Assembly (NCBI GenBank): GCA_951406725.2
Contig: OX597825.1
Location: forward strand, 2,604,001 to 2,668,000
Reading direction: 5' to 3'
Source: Octopus vulgaris
Lineage: Eukaryota
DNA: 64,000 bases
Shown here: positions 59,200 to 59,948 of the stretch, piece after piece
Position numbering within the stretch: position 1 is the first letter of the stretch
How the letters are laid out: each line of letters begins with the position of its first letter
Position numbers and translations under genes: made by a program
Notes under the pieces: generated by a model
The model's input: only the letters and a program-made list of their open reading frames with translations
Databases searched by the model: none
What the model was told of the DNA's origin: nothing

Positions 59200-59948
59200 A
59201 TCATATTTGAACATTATTTACATTTGACGGATATTTGTTCCCATGTTTTTTGTTGTTAGCACAACGTTTCGGCTGATATACCCTCCAGCCTTCATCAGGT
59301 GTCTTGGGGAAATTTCGAACATGGGTTCTCATTCCTAAGGTATTTTTCGGTGTTGTTGTTCTTGTTGTTATTATTATTATTATTATTATTATTATTATTA
59401 TTATTATTATTATTATTATTATTATCATTATTATTATTTTTATTATTATTATTATTATTATTATTATTATTTATTATTATTATTATTATTATTATTATTA
59501 TTATTATTATTATTATTATTATTATTATTATTATTATTATTATTATTATTATTATTATTGAGATCACTGCTTGGAATCGAACTCCGAATCTGGTGGTAAG
59601 TATCCCACGCTCTTAACTAATTATGGGCAATTATGGAATGAATTTTAGGGCTTATAAATCTAATATTTTTCTATCCTTCCTTAATACAGGTTCCCATATG
59701 CTGCTCATAACTGCACTCAGTCTGCTTAGGAGGTTGTTGTGTCCTAGCATATGTGCTGCTTCTTTTAGTTTTCATATTTCCCAGTGGTGTTCTTTGTCTA
59801 TTATTTTAACTTCATCCCCAAGTCACCTGATGAAGGCTGGAGTGTATATCAGACGAAACGTGTTAACAACAAACAAGATGAGGACAAATATCCGTCAAAT
59901 GTATATAATGTAAATAGTGTACGTAATTCCTCATCTCTTAAACATAGA
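59200..59948 (-). mobile_element. tRNA-like/(AAT)n/hammerhead element, copy 3, with inverted 3'-end copy (59815-59948)
   Basis: Hammerhead at 59258-59303 (-), tRNA-like module at 59562-59617, ~200 nt extra upstream sequence, then a plus-strand copy of the hammerhead tail. Confidence 0.85.
59258..59303 (-). ncRNA. Minimal type I hammerhead ribozyme
   Basis: gacac-CTGATGA-aggctg gagggtatat cagcc-GAAAC-GTT-gtgct. Confidence 0.8.

Follow-up and report, generated by a model that had tools for sequence, protein, structure and literature searches.

The octopus SINEs OR1, OR2 and OK, a set of tRNA-derived repeats, were reportedly described by Ohshima and Okada in 1994. Among Penelope-like elements (PLEs), Poseidon of Anolis carolinensis (PAc) has a single ORF encoding a reverse transcriptase (RT) with a GIY-YIG endonuclease at the C terminus, a pseudo-LTR (pLTR) that overlaps the ORF start, where a hammerhead also lies, and 3' ends at two sites separated by 30-40 nt, together with inverted 5' arms and partial tandems (PMC11167929). 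The two ends of the anole PLE were attributed to RT starting at two sites within the first part of the ORF; both strands of the target are cut and extended, a dimer is predicted, and the main substrate is uncleaved RNA (PMC11167929). In vitro, minimal PLE hammerheads showed poor cleavage, for which they had to be dimers or be given an extra helix III (PMC4209133). Schistosome SINE-like hammerhead repeats of the Sm-alpha type combine an apparent Pol III promoter with a hammerhead in a short repeat; their tandem units are cut by the ribozyme, leaving the promoter at the 3' end, and the sections of that report consulted here describe no ORF-linked form (PMC6765202). The TRIMp3 elements Cassandra, Helenus and Ajax carry a small-RNA-derived Pol III promoter in the terminal repeat and are non-autonomous LTR elements, the autonomous partners of which are expected to use Pol II (PMC10886601). 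Non-LTR retrozymes (bioRxiv 10.64898/2026.07.22.740005), for which the main text of the preprint mentions neither tRNA nor Pol III, and non-autonomous Chlamys elements such as MRC1 (PMC8557442) are short non-coding derivatives of PLE ends in tandem head-to-tail arrays. An octopus repeat annotation of 2026 counts 190 Penelope families, and the sections consulted do not refer to a hammerhead (PMC13282606).

The element described here was recognised from three repeats in a 64-kb octopus window (the whole stretch of DNA analysed) and has all of the features listed above for PAc. It differs from PAc as described in that the non-coding part is composed of a tRNA-like head with A and B boxes followed by (AAT)n, and roughly 80-90% of head-bearing arms begin at the head. 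Unlike in the Sm-alpha-type repeats, the head marks the 5' end of copies that are dispersed, and it belongs to an element of autonomous type; in contrast to the TRIMp3 elements, the candidate promoter lies in the pLTR of a protein-coding PLE itself. The dispersed arrangement is also unlike the arrays of the retrozymes and MRC1, which are likewise short and non-coding. OR1 or OR2 has been cited as a CORE-SINE (PMC4758252, PMC4824008), and by that description, as distinct from a consensus sequence, the octopus Penelope head is set apart in running straight into (AAT)n. The short form may already have been named as a SINE. The published papers searched, a search separate from the sequences in Repbase, Dfam and SINEBase, yielded no PLE with a tRNA-derived pLTR, and a pLTR built on a tRNA-type promoter would be new among PLEs in that literature, Repbase and Dfam apart.

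Anatomy of the three copies in the window

The three copies are located on the minus strand where the first-pass annotation had placed them, each with the modules in the order head, (AAT)n, linker, hammerhead and AT-rich end. Pairwise identity among the copies is 81-88% over the part from linker to end. Four instances of the CTGATGA..GAAAC core are present in the window, whereas shuffled sequence would give 0.175 on average. The features are as follows.

11420..11487, minus strand: copy 1, tRNA-like head (A box 11477-11487, B box 11435-11442)
11267..11419, minus strand: copy 1, (AAT)n tract of ~50 units
11092..11266, minus strand: copy 1, ORF start (ATG 11246-11244; hammerhead 11172-11217, predicted cut after 11177; long 3' end)
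16239..16292, plus strand: copy 2, inverted arm carrying the long 3' end
16166..16238, minus strand: copy 2, tRNA-like head (A box 16223-16233, B box 16181-16188)
16047..16165, minus strand: copy 2, 5' part of (AAT)n, read from the sequence
14836..16046, minus strand: copy 2, 3' fragment of a LINE inside (AAT)n, presumably Dong/R4-like (317-codon open frame; Pfam zf-RVT)
14630..14835, minus strand: copy 2, rest of (AAT)n and ORF start (ATG 14753-14751; hammerhead 14687-14732; short 3' end)
59813..59948, plus strand: copy 3, inverted arm (ORF ~+25 to +155, long 3' end or Penelope 'tail'; hammerhead core with a 3-nt deletion)
59652..59812, minus strand: copy 3, by translation the last ~53 codons, or C terminus, of the GIY-YIG endonuclease (one internal stop; TAA 59654-59652)
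59618..59651, minus strand: copy 3, linker from ORF stop to head (compared with other loci, a deletion takes the first half of the A box)
59556..59617, minus strand: copy 3, 3' part of the tRNA-like head (B box 59575-59582)
59350..59555, minus strand: copy 3, (AAT)n tract, the 5' UTR of the element, read from the sequence
59210..59349, minus strand: copy 3, ORF start (ATG 59332-59330; minimal hammerhead 59258-59303; short 3' end)

Several details of the first-pass annotation were altered by this analysis. A and B boxes had been assigned to all copies and are present in copies 1 and 2, but copy 3 is without the 5' half of the A box. The (AAT)n spacer is found in all three, that of copy 2 being split by an unrelated LINE fragment of 1.2 kb. 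The ~200 nt noted upstream of the head in copy 3 are indeed present and derive from a GIY-YIG ORF, of which they hold the C-terminal end. Copies 2 and 3 have genuine inverted 3' arms; that of copy 3, a real inverted copy of its own 3' end, holds the shortened hammerhead core. The end described as (aatgtaaat)n proved to be coding sequence of the ORF start and no simple repeat. ARAGORN with default settings detected no tRNA in the window, and neither a tRNA nor a hammerhead was found among the 150 Rfam matches listed out of 199.

The minimal hammerhead was confirmed, with the core, an extra base after A9, the G10.1-C11.1 pair and a palindromic zero-loop stem III, a layout matching the minimal PLE hammerheads of PMC4209133. 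The named stems are paired in 91.7% of cells over 12 arms, with no compensatory change in the same 12 arms, and the core is not better kept than the surrounding sequence.

Other copies of the LINE fragment within copy 2 end in AAT runs. On the basis of this AAT target and of sequence motifs, we take the insert to be Dong/R4-like. Dong elements are known to target TAA repeats (PMC3812793). A search of the ESM Atlas with the insert returned unnamed eukaryotic clusters only. Elsewhere in the window, a recent 283-bp tandem duplication (7054-7583, 98% identity) ends in (AAT)n and is weakly similar to the 3' part of the Dong-like insert.

The tRNA-like head as part of a Penelope-like element

The GIY-YIG segment upstream of the copy 3 head is the same segment that ends RT-bearing copies elsewhere in the genome. 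When this segment was used to search for ORF ends, the head followed directly in 29 of 30 loci picked by similarity and the tail in 27 of the 30, the window's own copy included. Forty loci taken in order of position, from among the first 100 entries for exact matches of the ORF-stop 20-mer on a single contig (C1), include 36 in which the ORF end is followed by the head and 38 in which it is followed by the tail. The RT is located upstream of the GIY-YIG segment in the ORF-bearing loci (Pfam RVT_1, E 5.5e-10). The endonuclease of locus L098 had no match of its own in the Pfam search; its motif was recognised by eye and is common to homologues, two of which have PF01541. Locus L113 is a whole pLTR-ORF-pLTR copy with 781 codons from an ATG in what had been called the linker to the stop, and full-length homologues are ~780-815 aa, with 897 homologues at E<=1e-30. 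In locus L118 the frame is open from the ATG via the hammerhead and AT-rich end into the conserved protein, and homology with the relative P0007 begins at ORF codon 31, within the 'tail'. These two results indicate that linker, hammerhead and 'tail' are codons 1 to ~53 of the ORF.

The full unit is thus ordered tRNA-like head, (AAT)n, ATG, hammerhead (ORF +35..+70), RT, GIY-YIG, stop, a 29-nt linker and the next head. The non-coding sequence between stop and start codons comprises only the 29 nt, the head, (AAT)n and ~20 nt. As judged from sequence, the head, (AAT)n and hammerhead are the pLTR of an autonomous-type Penelope/Poseidon element encoding RT and GIY-YIG in ~781 codons. The Penelope connection proposed in the first-pass annotation is therefore upheld by an RT/GIY-YIG ORF joined to head and tail, an autonomous-type PLE with the same hammerhead tail was found (the whole copy L113, together with the heads after ORF ends), and the tRNA module and hammerhead tail are coupled genome-wide. 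The position of the head, 29 nt past the RT/GIY-YIG stop and upstream of the start codon, supports the second of two options raised there, that of a PLE with a captured tRNA promoter.

The structural traits of Penelope/Poseidon are present, namely a single ORF with RT and C-terminal GIY-YIG, the pLTR-ORF-pLTR arrangement, partial tandems, inverted 5' arms and an optional 3' tail of 30-40 nt that is often on one end only. No Zn-finger linker between RT and endonuclease, a trait of Neptune/Nematis, was seen by eye in L098, the clade being assigned by structural features. Among neither the 124 nor the 83 best protein matches was an ORF intact, and the family thus seems to be dead. Element copies have diverged by ~5% at non-CpG sites. 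The ORF end, head and tail are also represented in contigs from sequencing runs labelled with four organisms, some of these contigs spanning the join of ORF end and head. No sister PLE family in the same genome was evident among the best matches, several of which are the family's own loci, 30 new loci being partly checked; a PDB sequence search gave 0 matches. The closest named protein relatives (P0020 and its cluster) are from barnacle, with 60% identity, most other named animal PLEs being at ~40-46%; the nearest relatives as a whole, the barnacle family among them, have protein identities of 60-72%. Horizontal transfer is a possible cause of this barnacle likeness.

The A and B boxes of the head are canonical and correctly spaced. 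The canonical pattern was found in 19 of 30 head loci versus 1 of 80 related PLE loci, and the single match sits in a different tRNA-like element. No such head was present at the pLTR of the 80 related loci, 19 of which have a visible hammerhead. With relaxed settings ARAGORN called some heads tRNA-like, with very noisy results, and Ala and Arg scored alike as the tRNA of origin among 10 genomic tRNAs compared.

Copy number and ends of the insertions

The genome assembly (2.8 Gb, 227 contigs) is estimated to contain ~38,000 insertions (95% range 19,000-69,000), based on 80 arbitrary 10-kb stretches in which 11 loci gave matches, one an ORF fragment only. Exact 20-mer counts were 10,804 and 7,482 for the tail, 5,148 for the head, 1,024 for the ORF stop/linker and 943 for a site 157 nt further upstream, a 5-fold fall over the ~60 nt from head to ORF stop and of only 8% over the next 157 nt. 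Capture-recapture, corrected for exact-match rates of 7/40 and 28/85, gave ~29,000 head arms versus ~3,100 ORF-linked arms (~11% ORF-linked), and short arms exceed ORF-linked arms ~5-9 to 1. When arms were picked on the 3' module, 21 of 30 had a same-strand head match and 0 of 30 ran into the ORF.

A comparison of 5' ends with the tRNA module had been proposed, and the ends do cluster there: relative to the tRNA-like +1, 62 of 93 head-bearing arms start at -15..+10 with a mode at -7. The remaining starts are at +11 or later (23/93), at -40..-16 (6/93, three of them fold-backs) or extend into the ORF (2/93). The 93 arms are not independent, many being two arms of one insertion, and the loci were picked by pattern from the start of one contig. 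Tandem junctions in L463, L474 and L478 restart at -6 with no fold-back, and further -6 junctions without fold-back are found in L134, L153 and L160. Long palindromes, or inverted extensions of a few bases, are present on many of the arms at -7. Starts at -7, -14 and -17 would correspond to a G at -6 with a short inverted stretch added, which is what folding of the cDNA end on a 4-bp mini-hairpin would be expected to produce.

The 3' ends are bimodal, at ORF +121-129 and +154-161, the two sites being 33 nt apart and the short one enclosed by a 9-bp stem. This pattern resembles that of the anole PLE with its two internal RT starts (PMC11167929). A head-to-head arrangement was found in 36 of 60 insertions. 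The 31 head-to-head pairs with both ends mapped comprise 21 short plus long, 2 short-short, 0 long-long and 8 unclassified; thus 21 of the 23 classifiable pairs are mixed (P 7e-5), an outcome that supports priming twice, once on each target strand. Among 30 partial tandems, four (L460, L471, L474 and L478) end the first unit at ORF +388/389, three with extra A bases at the joint; this may reflect a third start site of the RT, the 3' end of an RNA, or a dimeric master that was propagated.

The ends gave no sign that cleaved RNA is copied. In a preset window at +67..+73, 7 of 90 internal 5' ends were found (P 0.43), and 3' ends fall 50-90 nt beyond the predicted cut site. A post hoc bump of 12/90 at +71..+75 coincides with a palindrome and was not taken as a cleavage trace.

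The short copies have the 5' head with A and B boxes typical of tRNA-derived SINEs and appear SINE-like in number and in their sharp 5' edge. No fixed diagnostic site was found between 40 ORF-linked and 65 short arms, and non-CpG divergence in a matched selection was 4.9% versus 4.7%. The lowest P values for diagnostic sites, 0.003-0.01, are uncorrected over ~230 columns and arise in part from the selection of loci by tail similarity. Median AAT lengths are 30 nt in ORF-linked arms (9 of 40 measured) and 27 nt in short arms (12 of 29 measured). Units with ORF beyond +160 likewise begin at the head, directly in L453 and L477 and via a fold-back in L463 and L474. The equal divergence and lack of fixed differences run against the other option of the first-pass annotation, a separate SINE passenger. 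Nor does the family fit a separate non-autonomous SINE sharing only the 3' end of its partner, the head being part of the ORF-bearing element and the shared part being the 5' start of the ORF.

Transcription, proposed mechanism and rival explanations

The tRNA-like head is likely a working Pol III promoter. In RNA-seq of a related organism the strands were equal, 72-78% of reads ran on into unrelated flanks, and there was no pile-up of transcript starts or ends inside the element. The junction of ORF stop and head folds into an imperfect hairpin of ~-11 to -12.5 kcal/mol, a possible hot spot for truncation in the absence of Pol III. As a test for terminators, runs of four T (T4) were counted, and none present in at least 30% of covering copies was found on the sense strand along 2.58 kb. 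When three natural pieces were shuffled synonymously, 4.1 runs were expected (P of none 0.008), and the same pieces held 1 private run (P of at most one 0.066). None of 25 related PLE ORFs of at least 500 aa, several from the same family, was free of T4 (156 observed versus 128 expected). Two LINE ORF clusters taken as Dong-like are also T4-poor (5 versus 12.1 and 0 versus 2.7 expected), and stop-free stretches of the Penelope family, untrimmed to the element, held 23 versus 30.4. The test is compatible with, and no proof of, Pol III read-through of the whole element. It is a tentative possibility that the tRNA promoter replaced a Pol II promoter, the whole 2.5-kb RT/endonuclease mRNA being a Pol III transcript and the short copies a by-product of RT starting internally on it. 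The scarcity of T4, together with head and (AAT)n being nearly the sole non-coding sequence, supports this proposal; against it speak the low T4 counts of the Dong-like ORFs in this genome and the need to account for how an uncapped RNA is translated.

The repeats are probably pLTR copies of one decayed Penelope/Poseidon-type retrotransposon, in which the head likely serves as Pol III promoter and reverse transcription, with its two likely start sites in the first part of the ORF, would for the most part copy a short leader. The RNA would start at a G six bases before the tRNA-like +1, and the usual template would be uncleaved. The RT/endonuclease, probably as a dimer, would nick both target strands, with priming at ORF ~+123/+129 on one strand and ~+157/+160 on the other. 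The two cDNAs would join head to head, often after a finished cDNA end folds back on the 4-bp mini-hairpin, giving a SINE-like insert of 250-400 nt with an inverted arm and one short and one long end. The AAT tract would slip after insertion and be targeted by Dong-like LINEs. Anatomy, linkage, the step in 5' ends and the two 3' ends are observed; the Pol III start at -6, dual priming and fold-back joining are inferred. Since the RT start sites lie 250-400 nt from the RNA 5' end, any head transcript would yield a SINE-sized product; short and ORF-linked arms would be alike because they share an RNA template and internal RT start, and longer ORF-carrying units would begin at the head, where complete, because they derive from the same head-started RNA.

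This mechanism sits poorly with the RNA-seq of the related organism, which has no discrete start, equal strands and mostly read-through, and with the junction hairpin and the spread of 5' ends at +11 or later. The read-through and the hairpin, along with the inverted extensions or long palindromes on many arms at -7, would fit a reading in which the tRNA-like piece is passively captured and transcription depends on read-through or on Pol II, as at the internal promoter of D. virilis Penelope, the 5' pile-up then arising from snap-back of cDNA on the mini-palindrome or from RT stalling at the hairpin. That explanation is considered unlikely: an RT that stalls at a hairpin in the RNA would be expected to leave its ends 3' of that hairpin and not in the loop or 5' arm, the six -6 junctions listed above have no fold-back, and the boxes are canonical and properly spaced with only 29 nt of other non-coding sequence between stop and head. 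The D. virilis promoter, which overlaps an intron (PMC8557442), is a precedent in its favour.

An independent SINE family with its own masters, composed of a tRNA head and a Penelope-derived RT-binding segment and mobilised in trans, would account for the excess of short arms, and the ORF-linked form would then be a SINE joined to an ORF end. The linker resembles a decayed inverted copy of the first bases of the head, like a fold-back end, and an identical tandem junction at ORF +388 in two loci hints at non-autonomous masters. We nevertheless regard such a family as quite improbable, because the 40 and 65 arms are undifferentiated and equally diverged, L453, L477, L463 and L474 carry ORF beyond +160 and also begin at the head, and the head directly precedes the ORF's own start codon. 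Multiplication as a retrozyme-like RNA, by hammerhead cleavage, circularisation and rolling-circle copying, agrees with the dimer-type palindromic stem III and with the proposal that animal retrozymes are PLE derivatives (bioRxiv 10.64898/2026.07.22.740005), but is most improbable of all: copies are dispersed and largely head to head, unlike tandem monomers, and both 5' and 3' ends lie off the cut site.

If the retrotransposon with a Pol III-driven pLTR is the true source, it would correspond, among PLEs, to the SINE/LINE and Cassandra-type systems, the Pol III promoter in this case being carried by the protein-coding element. SINE-like repeats could then arise with no separate SINE gene, via an internal RT start unique to PLEs, and the tens of thousands of short copies would be a record of the insertion mechanism. 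Repeat libraries may divide such a family into 'SINE' and 'Penelope' entries.

A second tRNA-headed repeat family (L121-L200) is ~7 times commoner, with 61 versus 9 matches in 800 kb, and seven tRNA-Cys-like genes are clustered within 3 kb at L206. In the window, a 1022-codon open frame with APE endonuclease and RT domains (23250-26315, plus strand) is an apparently intact LINE ORF2, and a 297-codon frame just upstream of it (21973-22863, plus strand) has a weak Myb/SANT-like match below the Pfam cut-off. A near-perfect, microsatellite-rich inverted repeat at 43696-47468, with arms of ~1.9 kb (84-96% identity in non-repetitive parts) around a centre at ~45588, is either a fold-back element or an assembly artefact.
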